The position numbers and the translations under genes were made by a program. A stretch of DNA of 64,000 nucleotides, from sequence record EF437941. One strand, 5' to 3'. Shown here piece after piece: positions 7,544 to 44,976 of the stretch (its first letter is position 1; each line of letters opens with the position of its first letter). The stretch is from Escherichia phage Phi1. Under the pieces are notes generated by a model that saw only the letters and a program-made list of their open reading frames with translations, did not search any database and was not told where the DNA came from.

Positions 7544-8356
7544 TCAATCTACGTTAGTTACATAAACTTCTTGCGTATCAGAAGACTTGCCACCTGAACG
7601 ATCTAGGCAATAGGTCTTATTCAACAAGACGCAGTTTAAATCATTCCGCTTGATAAAGTCAAGAAGATGATCATTTGCCTTTCCCTTATGATGCGTGACA
7701 TTACTTATACCAAACTGAAAACCACGCGCCATAATAGATTCTACCCACTGATAGAATTTAATCTCTTCCTCGTCACTCCAGAACTTATTATATTCCGCAG
7801 AAGTGATAAGGTACGGCGGGTCCAAATAAACGAAATCACCTGGCAAGATCTCGATCTCGTCATAACGACCGGACGTAAAACTGATTCGACCGTCTTTGTT
7901 TTCTTCCTTAAAATTCAGGACACGCTCTACCGCGTTTTCGTTAAAAGTCCGGCGACCAAAATTAGCATTAAATTCGCCCTTCCTGTTATGGCGGTTAATG
8001 TTGCTAAAACTGTGCTGAATCAGAACAAACAGAGATAGCGGATCTGGATTCTCATTATACTTCTTACGGAATGCCATGTAAGCATCTTTATCATCACGAG
8101 ACAAATCATTCTCGGCAATAATCCGCTTGATCGTAGAAACCGGATCAGGACACTCGTCAATCGCTTTGTACGCTTCAATTAAGCGGTGATCATAGTCATT
8201 AGCCAGCACATCCCCTTCGACGTACAGAGACACGCTCAAGCCGCCACAAAAGGCATCAACAAAGCGGTTATAGTGCTTAGGGAAATACTTACTAACACCT
8301 GGCAATAGCTTTTCCTTATTGCCAGTATAGGGAATTAAACCTAATGCTTTCTTCAT
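7544..8356 (-). CDS. dam: DNA adenine methyltransferase (alpha-class, DPPY)
   Basis: Motif I FVDAFCGGLSV and motif IV DPPY; overall similarity to T4 Dam as recalled. Confidence 0.9.
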   Translation of the reverse strand: MKKALGLIPYTGNKEKLLPGVSKYFPKHYNRFVDAFCGGLSVSLYVEGDVLANDYDHRLIEAYKAIDECPDPVSTIKRIIAENDLSRDDKDAYMAFRKKYNENPDPLSLFVLIQHSFSNINRHNRKGEFNANFGRRTFNENAVERVLNFKEENKDGRISFTSGRYDEIEILPGDFVYLDPPYLITSAEYNKFWSDEEEIKFYQWVESIMARGFQFGISNVTHHKGKANDHLLDFIKRNDLNCVLLNKTYCLDRSGGKSSDTQEVYVTNVD

Positions 8357-8787
8357 TATCCCTTCCTCAAATAAGTTCTCTCAATCTCTACCAGTTCGAA
8401 AAATTCTTGCCAATCACACGGAAAATTGCAGTTTCCGAAATGATCCTCTTTGTAAAGTTCTTTACCGGATGGCAGCTTAATATCTGTTACGCTGTAGTAT
8501 CCGCAACAATCGCAATCACCCTCTGTATATTTTGTTTTAGTCGGAATATCCATCATTGCCAGATACAAAGGTACATCGTCTTGCTCAAAGTTCATGTAAC
8601 CTTCATGGTCGAATGAAACAAAGTTATCATCGCCACCGAAAGGGATATAATGGTCATAATCGGTTACAGGTTGACCGTGTAATTCCCATTCTACAATTTT
8701 AACATTACCACTAAACTTTATACCCATAATTTCAACAAGAAAATGAGTATCGTCAATGTAAATCTTACTAGGGGTTGGATAAACCAT
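8356..8787 (-). CDS. hypothetical protein (Cys-rich C-terminal half)
   Basis: ORF tiled on minus strand, start overlaps the upstream stop. Confidence 0.5.
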   Translation of the reverse strand: MVYPTPSKIYIDDTHFLVEIMGIKFSGNVKIVEWELHGQPVTDYDHYIPFGGDDNFVSFDHEGYMNFEQDDVPLYLAMMDIPTKTKYTEGDCDCCGYYSVTDIKLPSGKELYKEDHFGNCNFPCDWQEFFELVEIERTYLRKG

Positions 8788-41400: not shown

Positions 41401-41528
41401 GTCCACTGTTTGACCAGTCGGCGGTAACATTCTCTATGTTCCGTGAACTTGTAGATAAACGGTTGAAGGATAATATAGGGAATCCACGCGATCCGAAGAA
41501 TCCGACACAGAGGAAAATTAATGGCTAA
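38442..41528 (+). CDS. 7: baseplate wedge protein gp7
   Basis: 1028 aa; synteny. Confidence 0.8.
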   Translation: MIKAPSVTSLTIEKLSANQAYITWDDVGENFFYFVELAETRTRDGEVIPVDELSWVNLGYTAEQNWFEDKNLFPEYYYKFRVAVAAEGFEQSKWVETEEFQTFKTNAYNFSMMREFNLANEFVKQKFTYDNRDYIKFNTDLIQASLMKEDFVFSPEYANMTNISNYIVVDENFHEIQDHIEKVCTDINRTMLAEMNGVLYLFERFQPIVKVSNDKGQSWKAYKAFNDRVGNPVSRTCVYQSKTTTYVLGYDRIFYGRQASDTRWIADDVRFSDDTITFAKVGDENDLGFDVEVFGVFSRLTGDTTKYAEAMACSDDYLWVGAKDVIRRIRLKNTPVDTVQGSPTFGEKIFDPDVIRVTGNDKAVIQKMDVIDGKLLVFVTGEVKQRYQDPTKPENVVPSDDAGVYLIGSDGLSFQRVFGNTPQEREYIQHGFSNMSTNGDEVFISHYNHHFESILPDPETAAKYELGEAVKYSQEPTYLTDKKIHQTTFRASYDDLRIWELGPQAYYNEADYTWMRRNGVRVWITNDNRPLVVYPEVIYTQEVDTSGILDQNRVNREVYDKGTVTCYLNNVKFEGFKQYASGVMFHKNTGEIIGFYQFNYRVRDQVGVYWKPTNVAFVAELQNQVREVPWVPVHYDREQDPDLRPLLNKMTPDSFLLENENFRKFSEYYLQFLSDGSGTYYNKLKNLIKNKYPREQDAYEYLWSEMNKRNIYADKNKRDAVVRFFESRKSDFYSTKGVEASYKFLFKLLYNEDVEIEVESQAGLEYDIVVSSTNIDEDIVGRTIYTPTGRANVTYLEREYEGGRLRWRVTIHNLIGRFEEGQVIKSEKTAFEGMILVGVRGKELLSSSIDYINRSRSQYTMKIKSALPVSRYANDVMRFVHPVGFGFIGVTLLTMFINSGLSMKHTETIIQSLKNYKFDSGLPSVYPDRVADLDVDGNIKKDPLTGKALYLTSPLIGDEFPVPPEYDQENSELFHGLKASERRFAMSPLFDQSAVTFSMFRELVDKRLKDNIGNPRDPKNPTQRKING

Positions 41529-42516
41529 TGAAAATAGTGTGATCTATCGCTCAATCATTACTAGTAAATTCAGAACGGAAAAACTTCTGAATTTCTATAA
41601 TTCTGTAGGCGATGGGGCAAATCAAATTACAATTTATGGAACGTTTGGACGTTCGGAGCCGTGGTCAGAAAACGAAAAAGAGGTGGGCTTTGCCCCACCT
41701 TATCCGACCGATTCAACGGCTGGTGTTGTTGACATGTGGACCCATATGATGGGGGCGGTTAAGATTAACAAATCACTTCTTGATGCGGTTATCCCTCGTA
41801 AAGATTGGGGTGATACCGGACAGGATAACCCGCGCACATTCTTTATCAATGACATTGTTGTTGTCAACTCAGCACCATATAACCGAACTGATGTTGGTAG
41901 CGGCTGGATGGTGTATCGCGTAACCGATGTTCCTGATCGCGGTTACTGCTCGATTTCAAGCATTGACGCTAAAGTAGAGTGTTTGAAGTTGGGCGGAAAG
42001 TGGACACCCACTCATGAATCAATTGCGCCACCTGTAGGAAAGGGCGATTCTATTGATATGGGTGATGGGTATCGTTGGGAATATCTGTACACAATTCCAC
42101 CTGATGCGGCGATCAACCGTTGCACCAATGAACATATTGTTGTTCCATTCCCGGATGAATTGAGACAAGATCCGGCGCGTTGGGGCTATGACAATGTGAT
42201 CACCTGGTATAATGACTATAATCTGCTTTATCGGCTGAAAGTAGTAACTTTGCGTTTTCAGGCTTATATGGACTCTGCGCAATTCCCAACTACCGCGTTA
42301 GTGGGTAATACTGGTTTCCGTCAGTTAAGCATTATCCTTAACCCATTGGAAAAGAAAGCACGCCCTAGCGATCCAGACGTTAAAGCGGTTCAAGATAAGT
42401 ACCGTCCGCAAGACTTAGAGCCACACTCAGGAGAAATGATCTACATGGAAAACCGACAACCTATCGTTCGGTCATTAGATCAAACAGAACTTGTTTCTGT
42501 ATTGTTTGAGTTCTAA
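41521..42516 (+). CDS. 8: baseplate wedge protein gp8
   Basis: 331 aa; synteny. Confidence 0.8.
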   Translation: MANENSVIYRSIITSKFRTEKLLNFYNSVGDGANQITIYGTFGRSEPWSENEKEVGFAPPYPTDSTAGVVDMWTHMMGAVKINKSLLDAVIPRKDWGDTGQDNPRTFFINDIVVVNSAPYNRTDVGSGWMVYRVTDVPDRGYCSISSIDAKVECLKLGGKWTPTHESIAPPVGKGDSIDMGDGYRWEYLYTIPPDAAINRCTNEHIVVPFPDELRQDPARWGYDNVITWYNDYNLLYRLKVVTLRFQAYMDSAQFPTTALVGNTGFRQLSIILNPLEKKARPSDPDVKAVQDKYRPQDLEPHSGEMIYMENRQPIVRSLDQTELVSVLFEF

Positions 42517-42528
42517 GTGTATGATTTA

Positions 42529-42557
42529 AAAGCCAATTCGAGAGAGTTGGCTTTTTC
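42529..42557 (+). terminator. intrinsic terminator after gene 8
   Basis: Hairpin AGCCAATTCGAGAGAGTTGGCT followed by TTTTT. Confidence 0.65.
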
Positions 42558-42568
42558 TATTTTGGGTG

Positions 42569-42597
42569 TTTACAATCTTGTCTGGTAAAGGTATAAT
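42569..42597 (+). promoter_or_regulatory. sigma70-type promoter driving the inserted methyltransferase cassette
   Basis: TTTACA-N17-TATAAT, then RBS GGAGGAGG and ATG at 42630. Confidence 0.6.
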
Positions 42598-42629
42598 GCT
42601 CACATCTAAACAACGGAGGAGGATAAATT

Positions 42630-42887
42630 ATGGCACGTCGTAAATTTACAGATAATTGTGAAGCAATTCAGGTATCCCCTTGCGGTTGGGATGTGATCGC
42701 GAACGGTGAAAAGATTGGAGAGATCATCGATCATACTCATTCATCACTAGCCGATTACACCGATGAACTATGGGAGGGTATCAACTTCATGAATGACACT
42801 AAACGATTCAAGACTATCGACGAAGCTATCTATTTTGTGTATAATCCAACTTTCGGTATGTGGGGAACTAGAAAATGGCACGCGTAA
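42630..42887 (+). CDS. hypothetical protein (first gene of inserted cassette)
   Basis: 85-aa ORF with strong RBS GGAGGAGG behind a sigma70-like promoter. Confidence 0.55.
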   Translation: MARRKFTDNCEAIQVSPCGWDVIANGEKIGEIIDHTHSSLADYTDELWEGINFMNDTKRFKTIDEAIYFVYNPTFGMWGTRKWHA

Positions 42888-43207
42888 ATATTAAATTGCA
42901 TTACACAATGAATAAAGCTAAGTTCCCAATGCAAAAGCATTACTATGGTCTACGTGCACAAGATCCCAAACTCTATGGTACTCATTGGTTTTGTAAACAT
43001 GATAACCAATGGCACACATACGAAGAAATGAACGAGATGATGAAACAGGGTATTGAATTTAGTTATTCTAACTATGACCATCGTATAACTTGCATTCGAA
43101 AATTGAAACGATGGATTCGTAAGAATCCGCAATTTAAAAACTTTGTGTTCTTTATGTCTCATGTTTATTTGGGACATAGCGTTACCGTCACAGCAAAGGT
43201 TAAATAA
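42875..43207 (+). CDS. hypothetical protein (second gene of inserted cassette)
   Basis: 110-aa ORF overlapping both neighbours (translational coupling). Confidence 0.55.
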   Translation: MARVNIKLHYTMNKAKFPMQKHYYGLRAQDPKLYGTHWFCKHDNQWHTYEEMNEMMKQGIEFSYSNYDHRITCIRKLKRWIRKNPQFKNFVFFMSHVYLGHSVTVTAKVK

Positions 43208-44046
43208 TGGCACGACTTTCTAAACAAGAACAAAAATTACATAACCGAGCAATGGAGTTGATTAATTCAGATCGTCCATTGACATATGAAGAAAAAGAAT
43301 TTTGCTATAATAACTATCATGGCGATGGGCTAGGTGGTTCCGGTGCATTCTTTACCCCAGAAGGGCTTGCATGGGATTTTACCATCGATGCACATTGCAC
43401 AGGAAAAGTATTAGATCTTTGTGCTGGGATCGGTCGCTTATCTTTTTGTATGTTACATCGTTGTAAGCCAGAAAAGATCGTATGCGTCGAACTCAATCCA
43501 GAATTTGCGCGGATTGGCAAGCGACTATTACCGGAGGCAGAATGGATCACCAGCGATGTATTCGAATTTGAGTCAAACGAAAAATTCGATGTGGTGATCA
43601 GCAATCCACCCTTCGGGAAAATCAATACAACCGACACAAAGGATGTATTTGAGTACACTGGCGGCGAATTTGAATTTAAGGTTATGACATTAGGCCAGAA
43701 GTTTGCCGATGTAGGTTATTTTATTGTTCCTTCTGGTTCCGCTGGTTTTGCCTATTCCGGCAGACCTTATTATGACGGGACCATGAAGTCTAATAAATAT
43801 CTAAAATGGAGCAAACAAACTGGTTTGGTGACTTATGCCGGATGTGGGATCGATACATCAATCTATCGCGATGAATGGCATAGTACCAACGTTTTAACAG
43901 AAGTGGTTGAGGTTCGGTATTACGAAAAAGAAGCCGTAGAAGCTCCTAAATCACGTCCTAACGAACAAATAGAAGAAAGTAAGGAGATTACCTTACCGAA
44001 ACAGGAAAGCGAGTCTGGGACGCTCTCAGATTTGTTTGACATTTAA
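43207..44046 (+). CDS. SAM-dependent amino-methyltransferase (N6-adenine-type, gamma-class motif order)
   Basis: FFTP motif, motif I VLDLCAGIG, motif IV NPPF in that order; 279 aa; start overlaps the upstream stop. Confidence 0.75.
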   Translation: MARLSKQEQKLHNRAMELINSDRPLTYEEKEFCYNNYHGDGLGGSGAFFTPEGLAWDFTIDAHCTGKVLDLCAGIGRLSFCMLHRCKPEKIVCVELNPEFARIGKRLLPEAEWITSDVFEFESNEKFDVVISNPPFGKINTTDTKDVFEYTGGEFEFKVMTLGQKFADVGYFIVPSGSAGFAYSGRPYYDGTMKSNKYLKWSKQTGLVTYAGCGIDTSIYRDEWHSTNVLTEVVEVRYYEKEAVEAPKSRPNEQIEESKEITLPKQESESGTLSDLFDI

Positions 44047-44050
44047 TTAT

Positions 44051-44077
44051 AAGCCGTCCTTGTGGGCGGCTTTTTTG
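44051..44077 (+). terminator. intrinsic terminator after the methyltransferase
   Basis: Hairpin GCCGTCCTTGTGGGCGGC followed by TTTTTTG. Confidence 0.65.
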
Positions 44078-44086
44078 TATGTATTT

Positions 44087-44094
44087 TATAAATA
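44087..44094 (+). promoter_or_regulatory. T4-type late promoter (TATAAATA) for gene 9
   Basis: Exact TATAAATA ~28 nt upstream of the ATG. Confidence 0.65.
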
Positions 44095-44121: not shown

Positions 44122-44976
44122 ATGGCACAAGTTCCAAAGAAAAGAATAGACACAGGTACTGTCGGCAATCCATCGACTGGCGATATCTTATATGATGGCG
44201 GTAATAAAATTAACGATAACTTTGATTCAATATATGACGCATTTGCTGATCAGCGGTTTAAAGACGTAGACCACGGCGTGGGAAGAATGGTTATTCATGC
44301 AACCGGATACTATCAGAAGCATCCACGTCAAAGCTACGCTGGTTCCGCTGTTGAGATTGGGAGTCTACACGATATCGATACAACTCAAGGCGCACTTATT
44401 GCTATTCTACCTAAAGCAAAGGTTGGCGAGGGTGTTGTATTCATAAATAGTAACGGTAGCCTTTCAACGACTACACCGCTCAATATTCGAACTCAAGCAG
44501 GTGATTCTATTAGCGGGTATTCCGGTGATGCTACAATAACACAACCATTTTCAAAAGTCACTGTTTGGTGTACTGCCGTTGAAGGTAGTCGCGTAACATG
44601 GCGATTGGGTATCGAAAGTATGTTTACCGATACAACAACGCCATTAGATAAAACAGTTAACGTAACTGGAGTAGCAACAAACGTTGCTATTGCCGCAAAA
44701 ACAGAATATGTTTCCATCAAATTATTAACTACCGCTAGCAATACATCCGGTTCAAAAATGCGTTCAAGTGAAACGCTACTGATGATTGATTCTAAAGCCG
44801 GAAAAGTTTATGCGACGGAATATGCAGTTTTGCAGAAGACAGAAGATGAACTATACACGGTTCGTTATTTCATCGGTTCCGGCGATAAAGTATATGCAGA
44901 GTATAAGGCTACTGGCGAAAATATTCGTTTAGCAGTTAAAGCCGTAGACACTATTAAAATCGGGGTTGCTACATGA
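44122..44976 (+). CDS. 9: baseplate wedge / tail fibre socket protein gp9
   Basis: 284 aa; late promoter TATAAATA upstream; synteny. Confidence 0.8.
   Translation: MAQVPKKRIDTGTVGNPSTGDILYDGGNKINDNFDSIYDAFADQRFKDVDHGVGRMVIHATGYYQKHPRQSYAGSAVEIGSLHDIDTTQGALIAILPKAKVGEGVVFINSNGSLSTTTPLNIRTQAGDSISGYSGDATITQPFSKVTVWCTAVEGSRVTWRLGIESMFTDTTTPLDKTVNVTGVATNVAIAAKTEYVSIKLLTTASNTSGSKMRSSETLLMIDSKAGKVYATEYAVLQKTEDELYTVRYFIGSGDKVYAEYKATGENIRLAVKAVDTIKIGVAT

Follow-up and report, generated by a model that had tools for sequence, protein, structure and literature searches.

A methyltransferase with a predicted sliding-clamp tether in the baseplate gene cluster of Escherichia phage Phi1

Baseplate genes 8 and 9 of Escherichia phage Phi1 are separated by a cassette of three open reading frames (ORFs), the last of which, ORF3, encodes a methyltransferase of 279 residues. 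The locus raises the question of what this enzyme modifies, and whether the two small proteins encoded upstream, ORF1 and ORF2, are its partners. We analysed a window of 64,000 nt of the phage genome (EF437941), to which all coordinates below refer; the cassette lies entirely on the plus strand. The initial annotation of this DNA recognised the catalytic motifs of ORF3 correctly, but missed a clamp-binding-type tail at the C-terminus, which is the most informative feature with regard to the target. The parts of ORF3 are:

43207-44046, plus strand: ORF3, methyltransferase, 279 aa (phrog_3820)
43207-43920, plus strand: catalytic core of ORF3, residues 1-238, with FFTP at 43348-43359, DLCAGIG at 43414-43434 and NPPF at 43603-43614
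43921-44019, plus strand: disordered acidic/polar linker of ORF3, residues 239-271 (from the predicted local distance difference test score, pLDDT, and variability in homologues)
44020-44043, plus strand: C-terminal TLSDLFDI of ORF3, predicted gp45 sliding-clamp-binding peptide (from its likeness to the RB49 gp43 tail)

The C-terminal tail of ORF3

ORF3 ends in the sequence ESGTLSDLFDI and the DNA polymerase of phage RB49, gp43, in KVASLTDLFDI; six of the eight terminal residues are identical. The gp43 tail was compared with 479 ORF C-termini, drawn from the window and from two parts of RB49 (1-50 kb and 120-164 kb). ORF3 ranked first with a BLOSUM score of 32, the runner-up scoring 19. Exactly four of the 479 ORFs end in [LFMI]-D-[IV], namely gp43, ORF3, DNA ligase gp30, and gp33. 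The codons of the gp43 and ORF3 tails differ at synonymous sites, and the flanking DNA is unrelated; their likeness has therefore been kept at the protein level. The same observations rule out a recent origin of the tail by copying of the 3' end of gene 43.

In T4, gp43, gp33 and gp55 bind the sliding clamp gp45 through epitopes at their C-termini (PMC2988020, PMC6212786), and these tails are interchangeable and carried on unstructured, variable linkers (PMC2988020). ORF3 has both of these characteristics in its sequence, a gp43-like terminal peptide and an unstructured linker of variable sequence. Residues 248-273 have a pLDDT below 50 in the AlphaFold model, and the length and sequence of the linker vary among homologues. 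In our alignment, phage copies carry an acidic low-complexity extension with a short hydrophobic end, which is absent from the enterobacterial chromosomal copies of ~238 aa. The tail itself is conserved across the genus Krischvirus, and the more distant homologue P0002 (68-70% identical) ends in TLTDLFDI despite a diverged linker. T4 gp43 ends in EKASLDFLFG, and in T4 DNA ligase the loop that binds gp45 has the sequence EPEGLDFLFD; the binding of the ligase to gp45 was spotted by this likeness to the gp43 tail before isothermal titration calorimetry and crystallography confirmed it (PMC6212786). We consider it likely that the tail of ORF3 is a clamp tether, which points to DNA at the replication fork as the target.

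Related sequences occur elsewhere in RB49: RNase H contains ATLNDFFDD at residues 13-21, and ligase gp30 contains an internal GLDDLFAV. Other candidate clamp-client tails of RB49 are those of gp30 (EVFDV), gp33 (NTLDI), and gp55 (SLDQFYEIEN), and a candidate consensus would be approximately [ST]L-x-D-[LF]-F-[DA].

A profile search for homologues of ORF3 returned 1,079 representatives at E <1e-3 (clustered at 50% identity). The best 150 were used for a census of tails, in which core ends were defined by a hidden Markov model and 1,000 composition-preserving shuffles served as the control. The full core is present in 147 of the 150, and in 88 of these 147 the core is followed by a tail of 10 aa or more (median, 23 aa) that is rich in Ala, Glu, Pro, and Ser. 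The motif Q-phi-x-phi-phi is found in the last 12 residues of 26 of the 88 tailed representatives, compared with a mean of 0.35 and a maximum of 4 in the shuffles, an enrichment of about 75-fold. Either clamp-type motif is found in 53 of the 88, against a mean of 4.1 and a maximum of 11 in the shuffles. Among the 35 other tails, several contain degenerate forms, such as QLALAI and QLAMAI, or have QLDLFGG further from the end.

The binding motif of the bacterial β-clamp is QL[SD]LF (PMC9690074). Homologues encoded on plasmids end in FAQLSLFDAA (a Pseudomonas megaplasmid), QAQQLALF (Agrobacterium pAt2), and AEQLALL (a Labrenzia plasmid). A fourth inspected homologue, P0119, ends in QQLDLFGEAA and belongs to a lambdoid module of CI, Cro, Rep_O, lambda_P, methyltransferase, and NinB. 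All four carry a β-clamp-type pentapeptide, QLSLF, QLALF, QLALL, and QLDLF, respectively. Lambdoid phages are replicated by the DNA polymerase III and β-clamp of their host. Since the lambdoid homologue bears a host β-clamp motif like the plasmids, and the T4-type phages a gp45-type tail, the type of tail appears to track the clamp rather than the distinction between phage and plasmid.

Several representatives are longer than ORF3: P0132, P0133, P0145, P0152, and P0213 (about 366-400 aa), P0204 (556 aa, with the core at 277-520), and P0139 (476 aa, ending in QEQLTLF). The additional 110-280 aa, at the C- or N-terminal side, are not simple linkers and may be fused domains.

Could the likeness of the tail be fortuitous, or the tail a non-functional remnant, so that ORF3 would be an orphan DNA methyltransferase of the ordinary kind that, like Dam, works free in solution? 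A number of observations speak against a tether. The gp43 sequence in our comparison is from RB49, a 96% identical phage, gene 43 being outside the window, as is gp45. Clamp-binding motifs are short and degenerate. About 40% of the representatives are tail-less, including the enterobacterial chromosomal copies and the 238-aa copy of the Aeromonas T4-type phage AS-zj (in which gene 43 was not found within 20 kb), and the tether appears to be dispensable for some members of the family. Finally, the tails of two other T4-type homologues resemble their own gp43 only loosely, the match being limited to a short [ST]-x-[DN]-LF core: gp43 ends in ASLNDLFGDW and the methyltransferase in KSDLFTFTIE in phage KP15, and the corresponding ends in RB43 are ASLNTLFGDDW and AQNLFTFTIE; both pairs nonetheless count towards the co-variation of tail and replisome. 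A chance likeness, however, would have to account for the top rank of ORF3 among the 479 C-termini, the excess of Q-phi-x-phi-phi motifs over the shuffles, the switch of motif type with replisome type, and the persistence of the tail in Krischvirus and P0002 while the linker diverged. We regard a fortuitous tail as improbable.

The catalytic core and its substrate

The three motifs of ORF3, FFTP (residues 48-51), DLCAGIG (70-76), and NPPF (133-136), are invariant in 32 homologues. In all, 47 alignment columns are invariant in the core, including GAFFTP (motif X), LCAGIG (motif I), E95, and NPxFG (motif IV). The linear order of X (FxTP), I (GxG), and IV ((D/N)PP(Y/F)) is that of the gamma class. 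The phrog_3820 profile (phage 'DNA methyltransferase') matches with an E value of 9.9e-118, residues 1-250 aligning to positions 1-246 of 255. The Pfam families MTS (PF05175; 38.6 bits, cut-off 23) and Eco57I (PF07669; 29.0 bits, cut-off 25.3) both score above their thresholds, and the HsdM-type N6_Mtase (PF02384) at 16.7 bits stays under its gathering cut-off of 20.4. The best matches in a library of defence profiles are DNA methyltransferases, namely MADS mad2 (4.6e-17) as well as Type II and orphan models, which align from FFTP to NPPF. AlphaFold predicts a single Rossmann-fold domain for residues 1-238, with a mean pLDDT of 85 and values mostly >90 in the core. There is no separate target-recognition domain in this AlphaFold2 (AF2) model, and no partner with a consistent distribution was found. 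ORF3 is very probably an N6-adenine-type amino-methyltransferase, which would modify an exocyclic amino group, most likely adenine N6.

These results agree with the initial annotation, which had placed the last ORF among the amino-methyltransferases of gamma order, judged it too short for a conventional target-recognition domain, and counted it as a second methyltransferase besides dam. The dam gene (7544-8356, minus strand) is of the D12 class (8e-31). Its RB49 orthologue ends in EVYVTNVD, which is not a clamp-type tail; of the two methyltransferases of the phage, one thus carries the putative tether.

The predicted fold by itself does not decide the substrate polymer. ORF3 is structurally similar to enzymes of the METTL5/PH1948 type, METTL5 being the top match of its core. 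An alternative is therefore that ORF3 is an RNA methyltransferase, either METTL5/PH1948-like or RsmC-like, which makes N6-methyladenine (m6A) or N2-methylguanine in the rRNA or tRNA of host or phage, and that the tail is irrelevant to the substrate. However, the DNA enzymes M.TaqI, HsdM, CamA, and M.BseCI have scores close behind the RNA enzymes and align over more residues, including the N-terminal helices. ORF3 is far under every cut-off of the NCBIfam equivalogs for rRNA and RNA methyltransferases, and the defence profiles that it matches are those of DNA methyltransferases. The gene is located among replication genes in the lambdoid phage and in KP15 and RB43, where it lies between genes 41 and 61. 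An RNA substrate would also give no rationale for clamp motifs that match the replisome and are so strongly enriched over shuffled tails. An RNA methyltransferase is unlikely in our estimation.

The gene appears in GenBank as "DNA methyltransferase", "release factor glutamine methyltransferase (prmC)", "putative methyltransferase", or "hypothetical". An identity with PrmC/HemK can be rejected: ORF3 scores 37.6 bits with NCBIfam TIGR03534 (cut-off, 199.1) and 16.4 bits with hemK_fam (cut-off, 115.5). The prmC label in several Krischvirus records (H1, H4, H11, H16, H37) is unsupported.

Enzymes with an NPPY/F motif do include protein glutamine methyltransferases, and the tail might bind the clamp for a regulatory or competitive purpose, by modulating clamp availability and with it the timing of gp45-dependent late transcription, or by bringing the enzyme to a clamp-associated protein that it methylates. 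In support, gp45 also activates late transcription via the interchangeable tails of gp33 and gp55 (PMC2988020), toxins such as SocB work by occupying the clamp cleft (PMC9690074), and several records carry the prmC label discussed above. Against it, the catalytic residues and those binding S-adenosylmethionine are invariant across a huge family, which means that catalysis matters, and the existence of tail-less members means that the core is functional by itself. The PrmC score is far too low, and the same design recurs on plasmids, whose β-clamp has no role in late transcription. A regulatory role is less probable still than an RNA substrate.

Tail-less homologues are also a fixed part of many Citrobacter, Enterobacter, and Salmonella chromosomes. 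Those of Citrobacter freundii (L004-L007, gene at 8001-8717) have 238 aa and are 53-54% identical to ORF3. The chromosomal homologues are positioned beside core genes (yliH, GSDH), on the margin of an island that contains an HNH protein, insertion sequence and transposase genes, and many small ORFs of no known function.

Organisation and origin of the cassette

The elements surrounding ORF3 are:

41521-42516, plus strand: gene 8, baseplate wedge subunit, upstream flank (Pfam Phage-Gp8, 2.2e-143; phrog_977)
42528-42555, plus strand: intrinsic terminator behind gene 8 (12-bp stem, 4-nt loop, T-rich tail)
42569-42597, plus strand: sigma70-type (early) promoter TTTACA-N17-TATAAT (11 of 12 matches)
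42630-42887, plus strand: ORF1, 85 aa (ORFan, phrog_16603)
42875-43207, plus strand: ORF2, 110 aa (ORFan, phrog_12630; two alleles in the genus)
44051-44072, plus strand: intrinsic terminator behind ORF3 (9-bp stem with 6 GC pairs, then TTTTTTG)
44087-44094, plus strand: late promoter of gene 9, T4-type, TATAAATA (from inspection of the sequence)
44122-44976, plus strand: gene 9, baseplate wedge / tail-fibre connector, downstream flank (Pfam T4_gp9_10_N, 1.4e-40; phrog_967)

The consensus of T4 late promoters is well established. The early promoter is the top scorer of nine promoter-like sites in the 4 kb scanned; the hexamer pair alone is not significant in this AT-rich DNA, as shuffled sequences contained 11.5 such sites. 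We consider the regulatory signals to be supported because two other phages agree independently. The record of phage GEC-3S has a curator-annotated terminator, promoter, three coding sequences, and terminator in the same layout as the window. In the metagenomic RB49-like phage L017, the methyltransferase gene is surrounded by a terminator hairpin, a perfect TTGACA-N16-TATAAT, a second terminator, and TATAAATA, the same octamer upstream of gp9 as in Phi1. Start and stop codons overlap at the ORF1/ORF2 and ORF2/ORF3 junctions. Every element that the initial annotation had placed between genes 8 and 9 was recovered, and the evidence from GEC-3S and L017 supports its view of the cassette as a separately regulated, early-type transcription unit within the late baseplate cluster. 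The heptamer ATGGCAC opens all three cassette ORFs and gp9 (42630, 42875, 43207, and 44122), the proteins starting with MAR or MAQ.

An identity of 98.7% to Escherichia phages kaaroe and Cognac, and of 96.4% to RB49, over this region assigns the window to a Krischvirus (RB49-like) phage. Of 64 matching phage records, 56 contain the entire stretch from gp8 through the cassette to gp9, in Krischvirus at 96-99% identity. As the same three genes occupy the gp8/gp9 junction in 56 Krischvirus records, the cassette is a fixed feature of the genus and not a recent insertion. The proposal of an inserted, mobile module is thus refuted in the sense of a variable insertion, but survives in another: the methyltransferase family is associated with mobile elements, and mobility is seen only at deeper levels. 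The cassette resembles a moron in having its own promoter and flanking terminators, and in a position that varies between genera and is invariant in Krischvirus. The methyltransferase gene itself is known and ordinary, having been catalogued by Nolan et al. (2006) under the name RB49ORF143w, a "novel ORF" that weakly matched a methyltransferase domain (PMC1524935).

The initial annotation had further proposed a self-contained anti-restriction or modification module of three proteins, in which the 85-aa and 110-aa proteins would be specificity or regulatory subunits, as TRMT112 is for METTL5. Such a module would fit the translational coupling of the three ORFs, their common promoter, and their joint conservation across Krischvirus; moreover, the enzyme lacks a target-recognition domain and its nearest structural neighbour, METTL5, needs a small partner. 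The distribution of the three genes contradicts it. In L017/L018, the methyltransferase (64% identical) is the sole gene between gp8 and gp9 and keeps the promoter and the terminators. In KP15, and likewise in RB43, the methyltransferase gene follows two small ORFs that are unrelated to ORF1 and ORF2. Among 5.8 billion proteins, ORF1 is found in 1 cluster and ORF2 in 5, whereas the methyltransferase has >1,700 homologues.

ORF1 and ORF2 have no match in Pfam, NCBIfam, or PADLOC, and the PHROGs families to which they belong are of unknown function. Homologues of ORF1 are confined to Krischvirus and three Vequintavirus-type records. Those of ORF2 occur in 87 phage records, with at least 26 matches of <60% identity in records of coliphages of ~135-140 kb. 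The ORF1-ORF2 pair is shared with rV5-like coliphages at 60-70% amino acid identity; the one inspected, FV3, is a Vequintavirus. In these phages, ORF2 homologues, with at least 26 records, are far commoner than those of ORF1, with 3. In FV3 (L001, 4001-4575), the pair lies among early genes, has its own sigma70-like promoter (TTGACA-N17-TATTCT) and the same AAAATGGCAC overlap junction, and is followed by a gene that is not a methyltransferase. The rV5-like coliphages, FV3 included, are absent from the organism and host tallies of the methyltransferase matches listed.

This distribution largely rules out the small ORFs as partners of the methyltransferase, and we consider a three-protein module very unlikely. 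ORF1 and ORF2 are best read as an independent passenger pair of early coliphage ORFans, unrelated to the methyltransferase and separately mobile, which share its promoter. The cassette is a mosaic, whose minimal unit is promoter, methyltransferase, and terminator, since the methyltransferase occurs alone in L017/L018 and the small ORFs are distributed narrowly and separately.

Sequence divergence within the cassette is concentrated in ORF2. An island at ~42,880-43,120 is 60-80% identical to GEC-3S at the nucleotide level, the surroundings being 97-100% identical. There are two Krischvirus alleles of ORF2 (99% vs about 73% amino acid identity), and ORF1 and the methyltransferase are >90% identical. 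This pattern suggests allelic exchange or replacement, or diversifying selection, as expected of a protein that interacts with the host. The AF2 model of ORF2 has a pLDDT of 61.5 and is too poor for a fold comparison.

Elsewhere in L017 (228-710), a gene with an N-terminal endonuclease domain resembling TnsA of Tn7 is located between gp2 and gp53; it is probably an insertion of the homing endonuclease type.

Proposed mechanism and comparison with known systems

How might a small methyltransferase expressed from an early promoter find its target? We propose that ORF3 is made at the onset of replication from the terminator-flanked sigma70-type promoter, and that its flexible linker and TLSDLFDI peptide mimic the gp43 tail and dock into the hydrophobic pocket of gp45. 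The enzyme would travel with clamps that are loaded on newly replicated DNA, or left behind on it, and methylate adenines of nascent phage DNA at the replisome. Its specificity is probably relaxed or short, with the catalytic domain alone reading the sequence, because there is no separate target-recognition domain. Other mobile elements would use the same core with a tether exchanged to suit the resident clamp, QLxLF in plasmids and the lambdoid phage and the gp45 type in T4-type phages. The pay-off is probably protection of progeny genomes from host restriction. RB49-type DNA is generally reported to contain unmodified cytosine, which makes restriction protection a likely benefit. Taken as a whole, an early, clamp-tethered adenine methyltransferase that modifies nascent phage DNA against restriction is the account we favour, with less confidence than we have in the tether itself. 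We are evenly divided on the broader proposition that a large family of mobile-element enzymes without target-recognition domains is recruited, via an exchangeable peptide, to whichever clamp replicates the element, as a general strategy against restriction.

As an unexplained exception, one Krischvirus, SAP, has been reported in a 2026 paper to contain glucosylated cytosine of the methyl-dC type, for which no pathway is known, and the 99.96% identical TB34 has canonical cytosine (PMC13390438). Both SAP (OZ034687) and TB34 (OX001802) carry the cassette, 98.3% identical to the window, and the cassette therefore does not explain the difference in cytosine.

The tail of ORF3 resembles the known gp45 clients of T4 and RB69 (the gp43, gp33, and gp55 tails and the ligase loop) in that a short hydrophobic/acidic peptide forms the very C-terminal end and is borne by a linker that is unstructured and variable. 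The difference lies in the cargo: a methyltransferase is not among the clamp ligands described in PMC2988020 and PMC6212786, and binding is predicted in the present case.

Compared with other gamma-class enzymes (M.TaqI, HsdM, the Eco57I type, CamA, and MADS mad2), ORF3 has no target-recognition domain or specificity subunit and is half their size or less. It is only 16-25% identical to METTL5 and PH1948, from which it further differs by the absence of an evident TRMT112-like partner, by its mobile-element setting, and by its clamp-type tail.

The closest prokaryotic concept is provided by M.EcoGIX and M.BceJIII. These plasmid-encoded, replication-associated ssDNA methyltransferases of the beta class, with a DPPY motif, are promiscuous (SAY), methylate adenine in a manner that depends on the mode of replication, and co-purify with DNA polymerase I; a sliding clamp as intermediary was only speculated on by the authors (PMC7736820). 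As we propose for ORF3, they are orphan m6A enzymes of mobile elements that act early or in the establishment phase, and for which an anti-restriction role has been proposed (PMC7736820). ORF3 does not belong to their family, however, as they are DPPY enzymes of the beta class (PMC7736820) and ORF3 has the gamma order with NPPF; no clamp-binding motif has been reported for them, whereas ORF3 has a clamp-type tail.

Our literature search, which left subscription journals mostly uncovered so that a prior description is possible, yielded no bacterial or phage methyltransferase for which a clamp-binding motif had been reported. What seems to be new is the architecture of the clamp tether and its co-variation with the replisome across the family. 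If the tail binds the clamp, a minimal methyltransferase without a DNA-recognition domain could efficiently modify a fast-replicating genome of 164 kb, and the tail would be a portable "clamp tag" that evolution has swapped between replisome types. The C-terminal motif would then be a signature separating replication-coupled orphan methyltransferases from others, and be a parallel, in terms of mechanism, to the replication dependence that is puzzling in M.EcoGIX and M.BceJIII. Clamp-tethered DNA-modifying enzymes might be engineered on this principle, and the evasion of restriction would be relevant to the choice of RB49-like phages for therapy. The analysis also corrects two misleading ideas, the annotation as a release factor glutamine methyltransferase and the module of three genes.

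The closest analogue in mechanism is the eukaryotic DNMT1-PCNA system. In this replication-coupled maintenance methylation (cited in PMC9690074), a PCNA-interacting protein (PIP) box recruits a DNA methyltransferase to the clamp to methylate nascent DNA, as we propose for ORF3. DNMT1 is a large multidomain C5-cytosine enzyme that acts on hemimethylated CpG in chromatin, and it has no homology to ORF3, a 279-aa enzyme of the adenine type. The phage enzyme further differs in being borne by mobile elements and in its likely purpose, the evasion of restriction. If our proposal is correct, ORF3 and its relatives would represent a widespread and apparently undescribed coupling of DNA methylation to replication on mobile elements, adding a methyltransferase to the clients of gp45 and the β-clamp and providing a prokaryotic and viral counterpart of DNMT1-PCNA.

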